From Escherichia phage HK639: a stretch of 49,576 nucleotides of DNA. The stretch lies in the sequence record NC_016158.1, one strand, 5' to 3'. Below, piece after piece: positions 2,274 to 37,894 of this stretch. Both the position numbers and the translations under genes were made by a program. The notes under the pieces were generated by a model. That model saw only the letters and a list, made by a program, of their open reading frames with translations, did no database searches and was not told the origin of the DNA. Position 1 is the stretch's first letter. Every line of letters begins with the position of its first letter.

Positions 2274-3674
2274 ATGCCTGACATTTCAACACCCAATCTG
2301 GACTATGGGAACATGGTCGAGGCGTGGGATATCAACGATGCCCTGATGGGCGGCACGCTCTATATGCGACAGCTGGGCGAGCAATATCTACCGCGCTGGC
2401 CGAAAGAAGACAAAGAGGACTACAAAAAACGCCTCGCCGTGGCCACGCTTCTGCCAGCCTACGAAGAGACCATTAAGCAAAACATCGGGCGTGTATTTGC
2501 TGAGCCCATTAAGCTTGCCGAGAATGTGCCGGATCAGCTGCGAGAGTATGCGAAAAACTTCGACCTTGAGGGGACGCGCCTGGACGTATGGGCGCAGGCA
2601 TTCTTCGGTCTGGCGATGCAGTATGGCCTCTCCCACGCGCTGGTGGATTATCCCAGGGTGGACACCGAAAAGGTGAAAACCAAAGCGGAAGAGAAAGCTA
2701 CTGGCGCGCGCCCATACGTCACCATGCTCAATCCCCGGCAGGTGATCGGATGGAAGTCGAAAATGGTAGACGGCAAAGTGGTGCTGACCGAGCTGCGTAT
2801 CAAAGAGGTAGTTATCGAGGACGGCGACGACTTCGGGCAGACAAAGGTCGAGCAAATTCGTTATCTGACACCTGGAATGGTGCAAATCTACCGCAAGTCG
2901 AAAGGTATCGATGGGGCGGCGAACTGGGAGAAGTTCGACGAATGGACAACATCTCGTAAGGACATAACACTGGTGACGCTCTACACCAAGCGCACCGGGT
3001 TTATGTGTGGTTCACCTCCACTGCTCAATATGGCTCTGCTGAACATCAAGCACTGGCAGAGTCAAAGCGAGCAGGACAACATTCTGCATGTCGCCAGGGT
3101 GCCGTTGCTCACGGTGTTCGGTTTGGAAGAGGGGCAAGAGCTGATAATTGGCTCGTCTTCAGCTACGTCGTTCACTGATCGGCAAAAGCAGGGTCTGGAA
3201 TACGTCGAGCATACAGGCTCCTCCATCGGTGCTGGTAAAGAGTCGCTGGCAGAACTTGTGGAGCAGATGCGCCAGGCTGGTGCGAAGCTGCTGCGTACGG
3301 AAAACACCTCTACCAAATCGGTAGACCAGACCTCCGAAGAGAAAATGCAGGAGCAGTCACCGCTCTACACCATGGCTACCAGCCTTGAAGATGCGATCGA
3401 CAACATTCTGCAAATCATGGCCGAGTACATCGGCGAGAAAGATGGTGGCAACGTTGATGTTCGCACCGAGCTGGATGTTGAGTCGAAAGAATTCAACCCG
3501 CCTGCTGCACTGGCTATTCAGTCCCTGCGCCAGGGCGGTGACCTTCGCCGTATCGATGCGATTAAAGCCCTGCAAAAACTCAACCTGATTGATGCCGATG
3601 CGGATCCTGATACGGTGCTGAGCGAGTTGCTGGCCGAGTCTGCGTCGCTGAGTGAACCACCGCCGGGGGTGTGA
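2274..3674 (+). CDS. portal protein
   Basis: 466 aa, directly downstream of large terminase and upstream of head morphogenesis gene; size and position typical of portal. Confidence 0.6.
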   Translation: MPDISTPNLDYGNMVEAWDINDALMGGTLYMRQLGEQYLPRWPKEDKEDYKKRLAVATLLPAYEETIKQNIGRVFAEPIKLAENVPDQLREYAKNFDLEGTRLDVWAQAFFGLAMQYGLSHALVDYPRVDTEKVKTKAEEKATGARPYVTMLNPRQVIGWKSKMVDGKVVLTELRIKEVVIEDGDDFGQTKVEQIRYLTPGMVQIYRKSKGIDGAANWEKFDEWTTSRKDITLVTLYTKRTGFMCGSPPLLNMALLNIKHWQSQSEQDNILHVARVPLLTVFGLEEGQELIIGSSSATSFTDRQKQGLEYVEHTGSSIGAGKESLAELVEQMRQAGAKLLRTENTSTKSVDQTSEEKMQEQSPLYTMATSLEDAIDNILQIMAEYIGEKDGGNVDVRTELDVESKEFNPPAALAIQSLRQGGDLRRIDAIKALQKLNLIDADADPDTVLSELLAESASLSEPPPGV

Positions 3675-3675
3675 A

Positions 3676-4782
3676 ATGGCCCGCTCCGTTAACGACCGCC
3701 TGCAGGACGAAACGATAGCGCACGGCCTGTATGTAAACCGCTACGGTACTGGCGTCGCTCGTCGGATGGTGGCGCTGCTCAGCAAGATGGATGCCGACCT
3801 GGCTGCCAAACTGCTGGTGCTGCTGGATGGTAAGCGTGCCGATACCTACAGCGCTCGCCGCTTGGCTTCGCTGCTGGCTGGTGTGCGCGTACTGAATCAA
3901 CAGGCCTATGAACCGGTGAATGCTGCGCTGGCACGTGAACTGACGCGCTACGTTGAGTATGAGGTCGGTTATCAGTTTGACCTTTTCAGCAACATCATTC
4001 CGAAGCAGATCCTCAGGCATGTACCGCTCCAGAGCATCGCGCCTGAGCAGGTTTACGCCTCAGCAGTGGCTCAGCCATTCCAGGGGCGCTTGCTGAAGGA
4101 GTGGGGCCAGAAGCTTGAAACGGATCGGCTGGATAAAATCACCAACGCTGTGCGCACCGGTTTCCTTCAGGGTGAAACGGTAGATCAGATCGTTAAACGC
4201 GTTGCCGGAACGCAGAAACTCAATCGTGAAGATGGGGTGATTAACGCCTCACGTCGCGACCTGGCGGTGGTGGCCCGCACGGCTGTAAATCACATGGCCG
4301 CTACTGCGCGTCAGGAGTTCGCACAGGGCAACAGCGATATCGTAAAGGCCAAACAGTGGTCCTCAACGCTGGACACTCATACCAGCCAGTGGTGCATTAT
4401 CCGCGACCGAAAGCTTTACACGCTCGACGGCAAGCCGCTGGGGCATGAAATTCCGTATCTGCGCGGACCCGGCAAAATTCATTTCTGCTGTCGCTCCGGT
4501 GAAATCCTGATTACCAAATCGTGGGAAGAGATGCAGATAGCCTCTGGCGAGCTGAGCATCGCCACGCGCGCCTCAATGGACGGACAGGTGCCATCGCATA
4601 CCAGCTATGCCGAATGGCTCGTCAGGCAACCGTACGCACGGCAGGAGCAGGTGCTGGGCGTTACTCGCGCGCGGATGCTGCGTGACGGCAAAATCACGGT
4701 ACCAGAGATGTTCAACGATGCCGGGGAGTTCCTTACCTTGGACGAACTGCGCCGCGTGGATGCGTCGGCGTTTGAGGGGTAA
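3676..4782 (+). CDS. head morphogenesis protein (Mu F / SPP1 gp7-like)
   Basis: ORF 3652..4782; start taken at ATG 3676 just after portal stop; position between portal and scaffold. Confidence 0.55.
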   Translation: MARSVNDRLQDETIAHGLYVNRYGTGVARRMVALLSKMDADLAAKLLVLLDGKRADTYSARRLASLLAGVRVLNQQAYEPVNAALARELTRYVEYEVGYQFDLFSNIIPKQILRHVPLQSIAPEQVYASAVAQPFQGRLLKEWGQKLETDRLDKITNAVRTGFLQGETVDQIVKRVAGTQKLNREDGVINASRRDLAVVARTAVNHMAATARQEFAQGNSDIVKAKQWSSTLDTHTSQWCIIRDRKLYTLDGKPLGHEIPYLRGPGKIHFCCRSGEILITKSWEEMQIASGELSIATRASMDGQVPSHTSYAEWLVRQPYARQEQVLGVTRARMLRDGKITVPEMFNDAGEFLTLDELRRVDASAFEG

Positions 4783-32536: not shown

Positions 32537-33048
32537 GATGCCTCCCTGGCTTTGGCATTTGCCGCATTGATGGCGTCAATGTTCATCAGGCAGTAGATAG
32601 CGCATTCTGCGTCGTAATCACTCAGCCCGCCGCTTGCCAGCTTGTTAAGTGCAGTGCCAGTTAAGCCGATCTTGAAGCAGATAGAGCCGTGCTTAGGGCC
32701 ATATCCATAACGATGATCTTCACGCTGGTCGCTCCATTGGGCGTAGTTTTTAGTGCCAAAATAACGCTCGCTCAGGCGCGGAAACCCGGATGCAATGTCG
32801 TTAATCGCATCTTCAACACACCCGCGCCGCTCCATGCTTTGCTTCGGGTCTCCGAAATTAACGATCGTCATGCCATGCTGGACCATCTCAACCGTAAGGC
32901 CTTTATTGGCCTGGTTGATTCCTTCAGACACGGCAATCAACTCCTTTCCGATACGTGAGGTATCGTCAACAAACTTCGCCTTCAACTGAGCCAGCTCAGC
33001 TTCAATTGCCATTTTCTTTTTGGTCAATTCGATAAGAGTCATAATCAT
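32533..33048 (-). CDS. hypothetical protein
   Basis: 171 aa, N-terminal coiled coil. Confidence 0.45.
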   Translation of the reverse strand: MIMTLIELTKKKMAIEAELAQLKAKFVDDTSRIGKELIAVSEGINQANKGLTVEMVQHGMTIVNFGDPKQSMERRGCVEDAINDIASGFPRLSERYFGTKNYAQWSDQREDHRYGYGPKHGSICFKIGLTGTALNKLASGGLSDYDAECAIYCLMNIDAINAANAKAREAS

Positions 33049-33177
33049 CTCCGCGCTTAAGGCCGCGCCGCCGAACGTTAAACAAGACTTCTGCGCTTGT
33101 GCGAAAAATATGCTGGCGGTGGATGGCCGCCGGTTGTCATAAATGGGCAGACTCGAAAATCTGCCTATGTATGGCCG

Positions 33178-33202
33178 ATAAAAAACCCGCCGGAGCGGGT
33201 TA
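33178..33202 (-). terminator. hairpin with T-run (minus strand) at end of membrane-protein gene
   Basis: Minus strand AACCCGC-TCCGGC-GGGTT followed by TTTTTTAT; overlaps the gene stop. Confidence 0.45.
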
Positions 33203-33649
33203 CTTAATTAGTGAGGCTGCGTATTCGAGGAGATACAGTTTTGGGGCCAGCCAGATTTTTAGCCACGTCAGGTCAGATAAGATGACGAAGGCGATGACCG
33301 AATACAGGAACATAATGGTTCCAAAAAACACTGACGAAGCACTGATAGTGCCGTCTTTGTCCCAGACCAATGTTGGTCTATATTTTGGCTTGCCGCGTTC
33401 CCATGAATATCCCTCTTCGCCATAAACTCCGTCCTGCTCGCGCTTCATCATTACCCTGAAGAATTTAATCGCAACCGGGATAGTCGCCAGAATAACCAGC
33501 GTGAGCATCATGCTTTTGGTGAATTTCCATACCAGCAACTGATGCACAACCTCCGGGATCTGCGCTTGGCTAAATGACACCGCAGCATCGATGCCATTCG
33601 CCGCTTTCTGTAATAGATCAACGAGAATTTTGTTCGCTTGTTCGTTCAT
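33200..33649 (-). CDS. membrane protein (two predicted TM helices), possible exclusion-type protein
   Basis: 149 aa; hydrophobic stretches MMLTLVILATIPVAIKFF and VFFGTIMFLYSVIAFVIL. Confidence 0.5.
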   Translation of the reverse strand: MNEQANKILVDLLQKAANGIDAAVSFSQAQIPEVVHQLLVWKFTKSMMLTLVILATIPVAIKFFRVMMKREQDGVYGEEGYSWERGKPKYRPTLVWDKDGTISASSVFFGTIMFLYSVIAFVILSDLTWLKIWLAPKLYLLEYAASLIK

Positions 33650-33693
33650 AATTGCCCTCTGTCGTTACCCGCAGATGCGGGAGAAATGCTTTG

Positions 33694-33763
33694 TGGTGGA
33701 GTGCTCCGGATTCGAACCGAAGTTTTCATGGGTGATCAGTCCATGCAGGCCCAGCCACACCCC
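33694..33763 (-). other. tRNA-like element (T-arm, acceptor 3' strand, CCA) of non-canonical structure
   Basis: Minus strand reads GGGGTGT...TTCGG-TTCGAAT-CCGGA-GCACTCC-A-CCA; 5' GGGGTGT can pair with 3' GCACTCC via two G-U pairs; only 35 nt between, so no canonical D/anticodon arms. Confidence 0.3.
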
Positions 33764-33887
33764 ACTACAAAACATTCCAGTTATTGCCGGGGTATTTATC
33801 CGCGCCCGGCGCGCGCTTTCCCGCTATTCCCCAACAGCAAGAAATCGCTTACTCTTTAATCTCCCCAACAGTAGAAAGGATATATTC

Positions 33888-34109
33888 ATGCAAACCATGC
33901 GGACCGTGTGCCCTGACTGCGGAAGTGAGATGTTCAACCAGCCCGATGATTTTGACTTTGAGACAAATTTCACCGGCGTCAGTTGTGCTGACTGTGGTCG
34001 AGAAATCACTAAGGACGATGTTGTCAATCAGGCCACGGACACGGTCAAAAAACAGATCGACGACATGCTCAGGAATTCCCTGAAAGGAACTGGCTGGAAG
34101 TTCAAGTAA
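33888..34109 (+). CDS. zinc-ribbon protein (CxxC...CxxC), orientation uncertain
   Basis: 73 aa MQTMRTVCPDCGSEM...VSCADCGREI with RBS AAAGGA; antisense ORF 33849..34196 (113 aa, RBS GAGGGG) is an alternative reading. Confidence 0.35.
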   Translation: MQTMRTVCPDCGSEMFNQPDDFDFETNFTGVSCADCGREITKDDVVNQATDTVKKQIDDMLRNSLKGTGWKFK

Positions 34110-34236
34110 CCTTAAAAGCTCCCCGAACTGAGTAAGAACCTCACTGGCGTCTACGTTAAGCAGTAGTGGCGCCGTTTTTTTATCTGCCATACACACCCCT
34201 CTGTTTGTTTACCGTCAGCCCCTCGCAAAGAGCTGC

Positions 34237-34253
34237 TGGTAAATCGTTTAGCC
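34237..34253. promoter_or_regulatory. imperfect inverted repeat TGGTAAA-TCG-TTTAGCC
   Basis: Same half-site family as the perfect palindrome at 34744..34760. Confidence 0.35.
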
Positions 34254-34486
34254 ATAATTGCCGCTCTTCCTGAGCCCGCCTATGGTCCGACGCATGGTTT
34301 ACTGTCGCGCCGTTCGACTGACCGAATCTCCACTTCGCCGCTGGCTAACTTCCCTCAGCTATCGATGTTTCGTTTCGATGGATTAAAGATAACCTTAGTT
34401 ATGAGTGATGGCAATAACCTAATTTATAATATCAATCACATAAGTTATAAATTAATGATAACTAAATGAATTTATTTTTGTAAATC

Positions 34487-34723
34487 ATGAGTGCTATGCT
34501 CACAAAAACAGCAGGAGGGATGTGCATGGTTCTGGATGAAGAGCGTATAAGCATGAAAATTCAGGCGATGGGGCGGGCGGTGATGGAATTGTCACTGGCT
34601 GATTTACCCATGACCCAGCAAAACATCATCGACAAGCTGGAGCAGTACCGGAAGGAAACAGGAAACGTGATAGGGAAGGGCGTGAACAGGGATGCGGCTG
34701 AGATAGTGTGGAAAGGCTTATAG
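34487..34723 (+). CDS. hypothetical small protein (true start may be internal Met)
   Basis: 78 aa; preceded by very AT-rich promoter-like region; weak resemblance of C-terminal part to Hha/YmoA-like proteins, not verifiable. Confidence 0.4.
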   Translation: MSAMLTKTAGGMCMVLDEERISMKIQAMGRAVMELSLADLPMTQQNIIDKLEQYRKETGNVIGKGVNRDAAEIVWKGL

Positions 34724-34743
34724 ATGGTTAACGGTGTCACCAA

Positions 34744-34760
34744 TGGTAAATCGTTTACCA
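34744..34760. promoter_or_regulatory. perfect 17-bp palindrome TGGTAAA-TCG-TTTACCA (candidate operator)
   Basis: Followed by two more GTTTACCA copies at 34772..34779 and 34793..34800. Confidence 0.45.
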
Positions 34761-34926
34761 AGGATGACAGCGTTTACCAGAGGGATCGGGTTGTTTACCA
34801 GCTGGCGGGGAATAGACGCCGTTAATGCCAGCATCCCATAATATTCAATTGGTTACGCTGACGTGGTGGTGGTGGTCGAATGGGGATCGGCAGACACAAA
34901 AAACCCGGCGCGGGGCCGGGGAGGGG

Positions 34927-35325
34927 TTAGTTCATTGGAAGAGAAATTCCAGAAACTCCCGCTTGTGCAAGTAGGGTATCAGCGAAGAATTTAAAATAAG
35001 TTTTCATGAACGACGAAAAATACCATGTATTTTCAATAAGAAACGTTTCATCTACAGTTTTATCTTTTGGATATGTATAGACCATCTTCATATCTATTTT
35101 TAAAGAAAACACTTTTGTAGATTTATCAGGACCATAGCTATCAGCAAAGGGACTGGCATGAACGATAATCACTGATAGATCAGGGTTGGAAAGTAGAGTC
35201 CCGCCAGCCTCAAAATTTAAATCGCCATACTCGAAAGTAACCTCTCCGCCATAAGAGTCTCCTAAGCGCGAAATTGCGCTATTAGTTACTGATGCTTCAA
35301 TGAGTTGCAATTCGCTTAATAGCAT
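34927..35325 (-). CDS. hypothetical protein, third gene of Gp49/HigB-like operon
   Basis: 132 aa; start overlaps stop of upstream HTH gene; AT-rich; no recognisable domain. Confidence 0.5.
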   Translation of the reverse strand: MLLSELQLIEASVTNSAISRLGDSYGGEVTFEYGDLNFEAGGTLLSNPDLSVIIVHASPFADSYGPDKSTKVFSLKIDMKMVYTYPKDKTVDETFLIENTWYFSSFMKTYFKFFADTLLAQAGVSGISLPMN

Positions 35326-35750
35326 TTCGTTTGATATTCCGCATTGCTTGTTTTAATAGTAATTTTAATGGTCTGGCCCGGGTTATCGCTAACATCGGCC
35401 GCTTTCCATGAGAGTCGTTTCATATCTGGAATGATGGCATGCGAGACGTCCACTCCTTCTCTTAATATGACAACTTTCGCCACGGCCCCTAAAGCATAGG
35501 CCATATCAGAAAGGGTTTTGAGAGTCATATTCCGAGTGCCGTCGAGCAGCTGGCTTACATGACCTTTAGATTTACCCAATTTTTTAGCTAGCTCGGACTG
35601 AGAAATGTTCGCGTCCTGCATTGCTAAAAGAAGGTCTTCAGTTGTGTTAAAGATCAAGCGCTCACACGCCATCTCTCGCTCACTAACCTCCGGGAAATCA
35701 AAATTATCATCACTAAACAGATTGTTAGCAATCATCATGGCCTCGCTCAA
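35316..35750 (-). CDS. HTH XRE-family protein (HigA-like antitoxin candidate)
   Basis: HTH segment ISQSELAKKLGKSKGHVSQLLDGTRNMTLKTLSDMAYALG; overlaps upstream toxin-like gene. Confidence 0.65.
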   Translation of the reverse strand: MSEAMMIANNLFSDDNFDFPEVSEREMACERLIFNTTEDLLLAMQDANISQSELAKKLGKSKGHVSQLLDGTRNMTLKTLSDMAYALGAVAKVVILREGVDVSHAIIPDMKRLSWKAADVSDNPGQTIKITIKTSNAEYQTKCY

Positions 35751-36018
35751 TTCTTTCCCAATTATTTTTCACCTTTTGGACATCTGAGTCATCAAGTCGG
35801 TCAAAATCTTTGTATATGTAATGACTAATAAAAATCGTCATATCATGTCTGTCAGACTCCCAGTAGTAACCTCTAATCGGAATCTTCTTTATAGCCCAGA
35901 AATTCTTAGCTGGCTTTCCGTTAAACGATGGCAAAATTCCTTCTTTGCGAACACTCAAGTCAGGCGTCCTTTTGCCAGAAGCCAAGCGCTCAAGTTGCAG
36001 GATGAGTGATATCTGCAT
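35725..36018 (-). CDS. Gp49/HigB-like toxin candidate (RelE/ParE superfamily)
   Basis: Track ORF 35725..36129 begins at non-ATG codon; ATG at 36018 with AGAGG RBS gives 97 aa; C-terminal IPIRGYYWESDRHDMTIFISHYIYKDF fits recalled Gp49/HigB pattern. Confidence 0.5.
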   Translation of the reverse strand: MQISLILQLERLASGKRTPDLSVRKEGILPSFNGKPAKNFWAIKKIPIRGYYWESDRHDMTIFISHYIYKDFDRLDDSDVQKVKNNWERIERGHDDC

Positions 36019-36145
36019 ACTTTTCTGCCTCTTTGCAGGAGTAACGCTTTTCAGCGATTCGCTCAGGGATTTCAATGCTCCCTTACAATGCACTATCCGA
36101 TAACACTCACCCTGTATGGAGCCTTTCAATTTATCACCATCTAAG

Positions 36146-36165
36146 AGTTAATATATATATTAACT
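36146..36165. promoter_or_regulatory. 20-bp perfect palindrome AGTTAATATATATATTAACT (candidate operator/promoter of toxin operon)
   Basis: Between cI stop and the HigB-like gene; self-complementary across full length. Confidence 0.5.
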
Positions 36166-36291
36166 TGAAGGATACAAGTTAGTTTGACTTAAAATGCTTA
36201 TTAATATGTATGACTCTTCACACCGAGATGTGCCCTTCGATATTGTCACCAGCTATGCGCCGACCAGAACACCTTGCAGAAGCCCCAGCTG

Positions 36292-36981
36292 TCAAAGCTT
36301 GTTGTAAGCAATGGACTCATGGATCAGCGCCTTACCCATGATGTACAGCTGGTCCTGATTTTCTTCTGTCACATACCAGTCTTTGTACGCCGGGTTATCG
36401 GAAAGTACAGCCAACTGCAGACCCTGCATTTGCAGGCGCTTAACGTGGAAGTGCTGCCCGAAGACAAACGCATACACCCCGTCAACTTTGAAGTTCCTCA
36501 CTGAAACGTCAAAGAAGAGGCGATCGCCAGACTGTATTGTCGGGCACATGCTGTCGCCGTCTACGGTCATCACCTTCACATCATTTTGAGTGCGGTTCCC
36601 GAAAAGAGATCTGGCATGCTCAGTTGTGAACTCAATAGCATGCAGGACCTCAACAAATTCAGAAATCATAAAAGACCCCGGACCAGCGCTTACTTTCAGG
36701 TCTAAAACATCAACCCGAAAGACATCAATTGTTTCCGAGACCGGTTGGGCCGCCGATGGCACATTACCATCAATCCGCATTTCCCCCACTCCAGAACTAA
36801 GCCATTCCGGCCTTACACCCAGAGCATGAGCTAGCTCGACCATCTTACGGCTGCCGCTCGTTTTACCTGATGTCATCTTTTGAATTGCAGGCTGGGATAT
36901 ACCGACTTTATCAGCCAACTGTCCTTGAGATATGTCAGCGGCCGACATAGCCGCGTTCAGTCGTTCTGCAAATGTTTTCAT
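36292..36981 (-). CDS. cI: CI-type prophage repressor (HTH plus S24 peptidase domain)
   Basis: N-terminal HTH QGQLADKVGISQPAIQKMTSGK; C-terminal S24 domain with GDSM motif (VDGDSMCPTI) and conserved Lys region; divergent from cro. Confidence 0.85.
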   Translation of the reverse strand: MKTFAERLNAAMSAADISQGQLADKVGISQPAIQKMTSGKTSGSRKMVELAHALGVRPEWLSSGVGEMRIDGNVPSAAQPVSETIDVFRVDVLDLKVSAGPGSFMISEFVEVLHAIEFTTEHARSLFGNRTQNDVKVMTVDGDSMCPTIQSGDRLFFDVSVRNFKVDGVYAFVFGQHFHVKRLQMQGLQLAVLSDNPAYKDWYVTEENQDQLYIMGKALIHESIAYNKL

Positions 36982-36992
36982 CTTATCAATAT

Positions 36993-37056
36993 ATAACCGA
37001 GGTTATGTAGAGTAAAATAACAAAGGTTATGGACAATGCCCATAACTTGGGTTATC
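36993..37056. promoter_or_regulatory. oR-like operator region with ATAACC/GGTTAT half-sites
   Basis: ATAACC-GA-GGTTAT (36993..37006), lone GGTTAT (37025..37030), ATAAC-TTGG-GTTAT (37043..37055) in the cI-cro intergenic region. Confidence 0.55.
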
Positions 37057-37091
37057 TTTTCATTAATCCAGTAATCGGATAGGTAAAATCC

Positions 37092-37319
37092 ATGAACAAA
37101 GTTATTCAACGAGCTTTAGAAATCGTTGGCAGCCAGAAGCGACTCGCAGATATTTGCGGCGTTAGCCAGCCAGCGGTTCACAAGTGGCTTAACGGTGGTT
37201 CCGTATCTCCGGAAAAAGTAACAGCCATCGTAAACGCTACTGGTGGCGAGATTAAGGCACACGAAATTCGACCTGATCTTCCCGACCTGTTTCCACACCC
37301 AGAGAACCATGCCGCTTAA
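37092..37319 (+). CDS. cro: Cro-like HTH regulator
   Basis: 75 aa; HTH RLADICGVSQPAVHKWLNG; divergent from cI across operator region. Confidence 0.7.
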   Translation: MNKVIQRALEIVGSQKRLADICGVSQPAVHKWLNGGSVSPEKVTAIVNATGGEIKAHEIRPDLPDLFPHPENHAA

Positions 37320-37348
37320 CGGCGGCCCTAACCACGAAAGGGAAAGCA

Positions 37349-37894
37349 ATGCATTCACTTGCGTATCAACAAGGTAACAAATTTTCGCCAACGGCGATGA
37401 TTTACCAGAATCGCCGGGAGCCTGATTCCGCGGCGTTAAACATCGATGGGATTCGCGCAGCGGTTCGCGCCTGGGCAGCTGATTGCCGCAGCCGTGAATT
37501 TGTCGCCGCTCTGATTGTTGAAGAGTGGCGGGCAATCGGCGGCACCGGACTTGATATCCCGACTGACTCACACCGCCAGATGCAGAAGGTGTTCCGCTGG
37601 ATCGACGGGGACACCGAATATGCGGCCAACAACATTCGCCAGCTGGCACCGGCAATCATGGCCGTGCTGCCGCTGGAGTACCGCAACCGCCTGGCACCGC
37701 AGAACGACACGATGTCGCTAATCGCCTCTGCAATGAAAGAGTGTGCCGAGGCTAAACAGGCCGTGCTGCTGGACGCTCCAGAGCATCAGAAGCTGAAAGA
37801 GGTAAGCGAGGGTATAGCGTCGCTGTTCCGCCTCATGCCGGAGCAGGTAGGGCCGTTGATGACGATGGTGACGTCGATGCTGGGGGTTATGTGA
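37349..37894 (+). CDS. CII-like / YdaT-like regulatory protein
   Basis: 181 aa directly after cro; position and size consistent with CII-like family. Confidence 0.5.
   Translation: MHSLAYQQGNKFSPTAMIYQNRREPDSAALNIDGIRAAVRAWAADCRSREFVAALIVEEWRAIGGTGLDIPTDSHRQMQKVFRWIDGDTEYAANNIRQLAPAIMAVLPLEYRNRLAPQNDTMSLIASAMKECAEAKQAVLLDAPEHQKLKEVSEGIASLFRLMPEQVGPLMTMVTSMLGVM

Follow-up and report, generated by a model that had tools for sequence, protein, structure and literature searches.

Escherichia phage HK639 is a lambdoid phage with an immunity region arranged as in phi80, and its genome (sequence record NC_016158.1; 49,576 nucleotides, the whole of which is called the window here) raises the question of why one short motif, GTTTACC or its complement GGTAAAC, recurs on both sides of a small gene in this region. 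A preliminary description of the window took the repeats for operators of a second DNA-binding protein, perhaps the small protein encoded between them or the XRE protein of the adjacent operon, and proposed a separately regulated switch. Comparison with related phages revealed that two unrelated elements have the motif in common, an operator array on the right and a leader RNA on the left. We consider it probable that the right cluster is the orphan operator core of a ParA-like ATPase moron and that the left cluster belongs to the RNA of the pL leader, which includes a putL-like element. The repeats and the gene between them are as follows.

34207–34213: GTTTACC
34237–34253: imperfect copy of the palindrome, TGGTAAATCGTTTAGCC, with 2 mismatches
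34526–34723, plus strand: small gene (65 amino acids, phrog_3975), joined to the array junction through its last codons and stop
34744–34760: perfect palindrome TGGTAAATCGTTTACCA (TGGTAAA-TCG-TTTACCA), termed S2
34772–34779 and 34793–34800: copies of GTTTACCA

All repeats were confirmed where they had been reported, and their enrichment holds as well. A scan of the whole window for the half-site found 10 copies of GTTTACC against 3.43 ± 1.89 expected, a number that none of 100 shuffles reached, and four of the ten fall in 34207–34799, within 600 bp. Searching for the 17-mer with at most 3 mismatches gave 3 matches against 0.07 expected, the palindrome and its 2-mismatch copy being the sole sites, and a half-site weight matrix built from related arrays gave 6–7 hits in 34725–34858 compared with about one per 600 bp elsewhere. 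Positions 34237–34250 and 34744–34757 are identical over 14 bp; by our own estimate, about 9 exact 14-mer pairs are expected in the 49.6-kb window and about 0.2 within 600 bp, and this identity of the left copy and S2 is weaker evidence than is apparent. The operators of cI and Cro do have a different motif, ATAAC..GTTAT, with three copies at OL (34387–34450) and three at OR (36985–37065), and the right-hand GTTTACC sites do not match this motif (ATAAC-N4-5-GTTAT). A second DNA-binding protein is therefore implied insofar as the right array is operator-like and belongs to neither cI nor Cro, but its binder is not encoded in the window.

The right cluster proved larger than earlier noted, a further site, S1, adjoining the palindrome.

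34725–34742, plus strand: S1, asymmetric 18-bp TGGTTAACGGTGTCACCA with half-sites TGGTTAAC and TGGTGACA
34762–34779, plus strand: S3, GGATGACAGCGTTTACCA, the mirror image of S1
34782–34789: GGGATCGG, the conserved end of the orphan core, containing a Dam GATC and repeated at 34883–34890
34793–34800, plus strand: S4, the third GTTTACCA copy, specific to this lineage

Sites S1, S2 and S3 abut, measure 17–18 bp each and consist of TGGTnAMM half-sites, the half-site consensus of related arrays, and so qualify as an array; together they form a 55-bp imperfect dyad with 26-nt arms that are 81% complementary. They sit in an insert of 170 bp that the window has, relative to phi80, between the small gene and the terminator. 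S4 is probably not functional, because it is specific to the window lineage and not conserved in the other orphan variants described below.

What these sites belong to became apparent from a palindrome search of viral contigs, which returned window-type loci together with loci carrying a 35-bp unit directly upstream of a gene for a 339-amino-acid ATPase. The exact unit, GGTTAACGGTGTCACCAxTGGTAAATCGTTTACCA, precedes the ATPase in one contig (L023), and close variants do so in two more (L005 and L013). The ATPase belongs to the ParA/MinD superfamily and is encoded just downstream of cI, which in L005 and L013 is lambda cI. A protein-based search recovered ATPase loci in 38 other lambdoid contigs, the main clade being defined by at least 86% identity. 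In this clade the upstream region contains, in order, a terminator, a distal 18-bp site pair, a conserved CTTGAY −35, S1, two or three more sites, the ribosome-binding site and the ATG; S1 covers the promoter spacer and the TGT extended −10, and the further sites reach the ribosome-binding site. The right-array sites of the window are thus the same sites that, in the same order, overlap the ATPase promoter in related loci, and the GAGGG that follows S3 in the window is, in the ATPase loci, the ATPase ribosome-binding site.

The type of site changes with the clade of the ATPase. Clades at 60–76% identity have other repeats, either tandem ACGATGTCC or GTCCAxxxxTGGAC palindromes; about 10 tandem ACGATGTCC copies and a TGTCCATAATGGACA palindrome were observed at 2598–2726 of contig L061, upstream of the ATPase of the 76% clade, and four ACGATGTCC copies in L062. 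The ATPase module comprises one gene and, after it, a terminator of its own, and a ParB/ParG-like small gene was sought downstream of the ATPase and not found. A structural model of the protein (mean predicted local distance difference test, pLDDT, 88) has a ParA/Soj/McdA fold without a separate helix-turn-helix, and seven of 13 clade-diagnostic residues lie in residues 310–335, within a basic C-terminal beta-hairpin and helix. Because the site type tracks the ATPase clade, the module contains no other gene and the clade-diagnostic residues are clustered, we infer that the ATPase itself binds the array and represses its own promoter; a protein bound to an ATPase-linked array would repress the ATPase gene. 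Searches of Pfam, NCBIfam and PADLOC gave nothing specific beyond AAA_31/ParA and no PADLOC hit, megablast against complete E. coli genomes (reach about ≥85% nucleotide identity) found no ATPase gene, and a literature search found no description of a single-gene ParA-like ATPase moron next to cI.

The window itself encodes the ATPase nowhere, and its array lacks the −35, the last codons of the small gene standing in its place. Because both are missing, the window element is an orphan core rather than a working promoter–operator; fused to the stop of the small gene, it controls nothing locally, and any protein occupying it would have to act in trans, as one from a co-resident ATPase prophage could. 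The ATPase module occurs in both orientations relative to cI, and the window is for this reason consistent with replacement of a rightward module like that of L061.

Other such orphans allowed the conservation of the core to be assessed. Scans with S2–S3 gave 1 hit in the genome collection (Pantoea) and 13 in metagenomes, and six distinct orphan variants were compared: the window, L154, L203, L207 (Pantoea septica), L217 and L218 (the L061 contig). They have in common the right half of S1, S2, S3 and GGGATCG, followed by about 70–95 bp that are barely alignable, then GGGATCGGC and the terminator. In L061/L218 the TGGTAAAC-type orphan core stands directly upstream of an ATPase of another clade, which has its own ACGATGTCC array. 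Invariant columns make up 38 of 54 in the core versus 16 of 93 in the adjacent segment, and identity between orphan lineages is 80–85% versus 34–50%. Both S2 half-sites are invariant, its central dinucleotide is free (TC, CC, TG, CC, AG and GG), and of S1 the right half alone is conserved; variation sits in the S2 centre and in the spacers between sites and spares the half-sites. As this pattern fits constrained binding sites, a still-functional site is favoured over a dead scar, and the orphan core is probably still under selection as a putative binding site. Conservation in relatives, which the preliminary description had suggested checking, thus extends to the S1–S3 core on the right, but not to the third GTTTACCA (34793), and the right half of the left copy varies freely.

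A possible, if unlikely, account of the right cluster is an inert recombination scar, a piece of an ATPase promoter that stayed behind when the XRE operon took the place of the moron; its apparent conservation would then be owed to recent ancestry or to recurrent exchange with intact arrays. The window holds no cognate gene, the −35 is destroyed at the junction, a variant in L016 has lost one repeat unit, among the orphans the left half of S1 has decayed and so has all of S4, and most window-type loci are near-identical, all of which a scar would explain; however, six diverged lineages, one of them from Pantoea, retain the half-sites of S2, S3 and right S1 while the adjacent 90 bp, still alignable, drifted to the low identity given above, and the changes that did occur are placed as in constrained binding sites.

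If the core is kept, its use could lie in trans. We regard it as quite unlikely, and as an argument by analogy, that the orphan core is maintained as a trans-acting decoy that titrates, or shuts off, the ATPase of other prophages upon genome replication; on that view the ATPase would serve its prophage in defence or exclusion, and the array, 'stolen' here by a competitor, would confer immunity to it. The L061 contig would fit this decoy, because a TGGTAAAC-type orphan core there stands next to an ATPase of other specificity.

That the right cluster acts instead as RNA or a cruciform, with S1-S2-S3 folding into a hairpin in the 3' untranslated region (UTR) of small-gene transcripts or, elsewhere, in the 5' UTR of ATPase mRNA (as stabiliser, processing site or read-through barrier), seems very improbable. 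The complementarity of the dyad arms would permit it, the region is transcribed if the small-gene promoter is active, and the downstream terminator of the window, read rightward, lacks a U-tract; yet upstream of three orphans (L203, L207 and L217) the small gene is missing, S3 shows no change that would compensate for the decay in the left half of S1, other ATPase clades carry tandem direct 9-bp repeats unable to form such a hairpin, and the distal copies of the S1–S2 pair lie upstream of the −35, outside the transcript.

Little credence can likewise be given to a host transcription factor, or a conserved phage factor from outside the module, that reads TGGTnAMM at ATPase promoters, at orphan cores and perhaps in the leader. 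Conservation of orphans without an adjacent ATPase and an ATPase model without a classical DNA-reading domain would suit such a factor, but the operator type co-varies with the ATPase clade in the same kind of phage, and L061 has a TGGTAAAC-type orphan beside an ATPase that uses ACGATGTCC repeats. We know of no enterobacterial operator consensus that fits, which also counts against it; to our knowledge, neither the TyrR box nor the operators of the LacI/GalR family, KorA or matS agree with the array in spacing or sequence.

Several further observations concern the right cluster. In every orphan variant the two GGGATCGG direct repeats (34782–34789 and 34883–34890) enclose the fast-evolving segment, about 95 bp long, and in four variants a third GATC (AGATCT) lies between the repeats. 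A pap-like GATC pair, formed by the GGGATCGG repeats 101 bp apart, was considered and dropped, because the distance varies (about 79 bp in L203). Two reading frames that cross the right array (33 amino acids on the plus strand and 38 on the minus strand) have no PHROG hit, and the plus frame is truncated in L154, so that this frame was rejected as coding. Neither palindrome has a U-tract, and both were rejected as intrinsic terminators.

The left cluster lies in the pL leader, where the following features were located.

34414–34409 (−35) and 34391–34386 (−10), minus strand: pL promoter, from a promoter scan, with the layout of phi80
34386–34450: OL/pL region with three OL operators of the ATAAC..GTTAT type overlapping pL
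34257–34319, minus strand: putL-like antiterminator RNA of the HK022 type
34208–34243, minus strand: hairpin UUUACC-AG-CAGCUCUU-UGCG-AGGGGCUG-AC-GGUAAA
34188–34201, minus strand: ribosome-binding site GAGGGG (34196–34201) and ATG (34188–34190) of the first pL reading frame

Comparison of 34319–34257 with putL of HK022, HK75 and O276 revealed 79.4% identity over 63 nt; in HK75 and O276 the element is annotated 'putL: antiterminator RNA'. It begins about 60 nt downstream of the predicted pL start. In the two-stem put fold, stem I is invariant and in stem II both partners have changed in 5 pairs, the covariation score is 0.25 versus 0.09 for shuffles, and none of 500 shuffles reached it. A GGTTTAC at 34295 falls within the loop of put stem I and the −10-like element. 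HK022-type put RNA allows terminator read-through by binding the zinc-binding domain of the beta' subunit of RNA polymerase. It acts on RNA polymerase without protein factors (PMC9378689). No homolog of N of the phi80 or L061 type was found in the window, and by analogy with HK022 the putL would render RNA polymerase terminator-resistant without N; since this putative put element is present, the phage can apparently do without that protein. A lambda-type nut site (boxA and boxB) was rejected, no N homolog having been found, with GCUCUUU of the hairpin lying within the stem, the tetraloop being of the UNCG type and a phi80-type nutL absent from the leader. An Rfam scan of 33000–37500 at E up to 5 returned noise only; Rfam contains no put family.

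Downstream of putL, the hairpin pairs GGUAAA (34208–34213) with UUUACC (34238–34243) as its outer stem, which in DNA appears as an interrupted inverted repeat, and continues through a 2x2 internal loop and an 8-bp inner stem to a UGCG tetraloop (UNCG type). It is the minimum-free-energy structure. Across 16 distinct variants, 96% of cells are paired, L080 contributes both of the two compensatory pairs, and two U-G pairs never vary; on the other strand these U-G pairs would be C/A mismatches, which makes the hairpin specific to the minus strand. At least six different leaders precede the hairpin and at least six different first genes follow it, its position between them being constant, and relatives join the same leader end to several different first genes. 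The imperfect palindrome at 34237–34253 runs from the 5' arm of this hairpin across a variable linker to the 3' edge of putL, that is, over a module junction. From 5' to 3' the leader would thus consist of the pL start, a conserved 5' segment, putL (34319–34257), the linker, the hairpin (34243–34208), the ribosome-binding site and the first gene, and the hairpin may be a 5' UTR element of the first pL gene that affects processing, stability or translation. Judged by sequence and predicted fold, the left element adds a member to the put family, with a leader hairpin as an extra feature. The left repeats were thus misread as operators, since they sit in RNA structures of the pL leader, the hairpin and the putL homolog.

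The first roughly 50 nt of the pL transcript (34338–34385, CCATCGAAACGAAACATCGA...GCCAGCGGCG) are common to put-type and phi80 nut-type leaders, with more than 120 viral contigs among the matches listed for this segment. Two antisense frames overlap beyond the leader: a minus-strand frame at 33849–34190 (113 amino acids), which begins right after the conserved hairpin and ribosome-binding site, and a plus-strand frame at 33889–34109, which encodes an ECs_2282-family CxxC zinc-ribbon protein and is the one annotated by PGAP. Further inside the pL operon, ARAGORN called a tRNA-Ile(GAU) at 33694–33763 on the minus strand, for which Rfam gave no tRNA hit (E up to 5); other leaders have different tRNA-like blocks at the equivalent position, just upstream of a conserved CCCAAAACATTCC.

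Analysis of relatives further revealed that the two clusters occur separately. E. coli M37H contains the small gene and an identical right array with a phi80-type leader that lacks the left cluster, and E. coli GB089, like many other E. coli prophages, contains the left-cluster leader, its palindrome further degraded to TGGTAAATCGCTTTGCC, with neither small gene nor right array. To judge from this distribution, the clusters are separate mosaic modules, each found without the other in relatives, so that they do not constitute one system around the small gene, and the flanking arrangement is coincidental. Nor does the window hold a self-contained switch, because the best candidate binder, the ATPase, is not encoded in it.

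The two proteins originally proposed as binders fare no better. A model of the small protein is a three-helix bundle (pLDDT 91) whose sole good structural match is E. coli YmgB/AriR (PDB 2oxl; template-modelling score 0.81–0.85, root-mean-square deviation 0.7 Å, 27% identity); Pfam gave no hit and NCBIfam and PADLOC nothing specific. On this model it is a YmgB/AriR-like protein and not a helix-turn-helix protein. A single extra regulator, the small protein or the XRE protein, binding on both sides of the small gene as a second switch now deserves almost no credit and is largely refuted by the comparative data: local motif enrichment, the 14-bp stretch identical in both clusters and the fact that 16 of 17 viral orphan loci combine the right array with the small gene speak for it, but the clusters separate in relatives, the left site lies in RNA structures with a freely variable right half, the small protein has a YmgB/AriR-like fold, 30 of 38 ATPase-linked arrays lack its gene, as do orphans L203, L207 and L217, and the XRE operon (the XRE, 134-amino-acid and 132-amino-acid genes of the window) is absent from all 17 other orphan-array loci, only 2 of which have the cI of the window.

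A number of points weigh against the assignment of the right cluster to an orphan ATPase operator and of the left one to a leader RNA. Conservation of the orphan core could come in part from recombination with ATPase-linked arrays. S2–S3-like DNA (28 specified bases) was also observed inside long reading frames, where it encodes ..PVNDVTAGKLFTNGD..:

L215, 2053–2919, minus strand: reading frame with S2–S3-like DNA
L220, 5745–6416, plus strand: reading frame with S2–S3-like DNA
L219: reading frame with S2–S3-like DNA

The S1–S3 dyad could serve as an RNA or DNA hairpin instead. Since the modelled ATPase lacks a classical DNA-reading domain and ParA proteins usually bind DNA without sequence specificity, some other factor could be the binder. 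On the left, most of the covariation in the hairpin comes from a single divergent sequence (L080), the margin over shuffle controls is only moderate (8–33 of 500 shuffles), and the leader folds with modest z-scores (−1.3 and −1.7); putR was not found in the window by blastn-short, which could miss a divergent copy. Chance accounts only in part for the 14-bp identity of the left copy and S2.

The surroundings of the two elements include the following features.

34492–34500, plus strand: putative extended −10 (TGcTATGCT) of a rightward promoter of the small gene, read by eye
34883–34925, minus strand: second GGGATCGG and terminator
34904–34920, minus strand: intrinsic terminator closing the leftward operon of cI and moron, from a terminator scan and common to phi80
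34927–36129, minus strand: three-gene operon (134 amino acids, XRE protein of 144 amino acids, 132 amino acids) after cI on the same strand
36292–36981, minus strand: cI

The extended −10 of the small gene is conserved in phi80 and M37H, and a consensus promoter scan did not detect this promoter. Homologs of the small gene are common in Enterobacter hormaechei, E. asburiae and Citrobacter as 'hypothetical protein'; the phi80 homolog (L001, about 3543–3752) is unannotated in NC_021190 and runs straight into the terminator, so that phi80 has an unannotated YmgB/AriR-like gene adjoining OL. The terminator on the minus strand at 34904–34920 was the sole call of the scan, neither palindrome having a T-run. 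The three-gene XRE operon may be a toxin–antitoxin or defence moron in the slot equivalent to rex, and its XRE protein has weak PADLOC hits to PDC-M64 components. At the positions of cro and cII (37092–37894), YdaS-like and YdaT-like proteins are encoded, as in Rac-type immunity regions.

Among known systems, the left element resembles putL and putR of HK022 in its two-stem architecture with compensatory changes, in its location in a pL leader and in the lack of a recognisable N in the phage. It also has the −10-like AACCAT described for putL (PMC9378689). Unlike HK022 putL, which stands at the transcript start, the element of the window lies about 60 nt past the predicted pL start, and an additional conserved hairpin comes after it; a nun gene was not detected in the window. 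An HK022-type put element is thereby added to a phi80-like phage, which would account for its doing without N, and a conserved leader hairpin is found to be common to put-type and nut-type lambdoid leaders. The small protein differs from E. coli YmgB/AriR in being phage-borne and encoded next to OL.

The right array resembles lambda OL and OR, the sites of cI and Cro, in that 17–18-bp dyad sites are clustered in the immunity region, some over a promoter; its motif differs, and from locus to locus cI and its operators change but the GTTTACC array does not, in contrast to lambda-type OL/OR. Autoregulatory arrays of the ParA type are known from P1 parOP/ParA, F sopOP/SopA, the ParG sites of TP228 and the omega heptads of pSM19035. 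Like the ATPase arrays, such partition operons place short direct or inverted half-sites over the promoter of a Walker-type ParA-family gene, and the site sequence is specific to the cognate system. They differ in that the ATPase module is one gene without a ParB/ParG partner or an N-terminal helix-turn-helix, and in that it is a moron in the cI-adjacent slot of integrating lambdoid prophages, not part of a plasmid, with the window keeping the sites only. These loci define a family of ParA-like ATPase morons, each of one gene and with an operator array specific to its clade; orphan copies of the operator core persist under apparent constraint in phages without the ATPase gene.

In BstA prophages, the aba DNA element acts in trans and gives immunity to the BstA protein (PMC8585504). 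Similar to the ATPase arrays, this is a prophage gene with a short clade-specific DNA element over its upstream region and 5' end (PMC8585504). The likeness is an analogy only: the proteins are unrelated, the array repeats look like classical operators and the ATPase has no PADLOC hit. If orphan cores did act as decoys or immunity elements, they would be a second example of DNA-based counter-defence between prophages. Of the systems compared, it is to the promoter–operator arrays of ParA-family genes that the right element, judged by its sites, belongs in type, surviving in the window as a conserved orphan.

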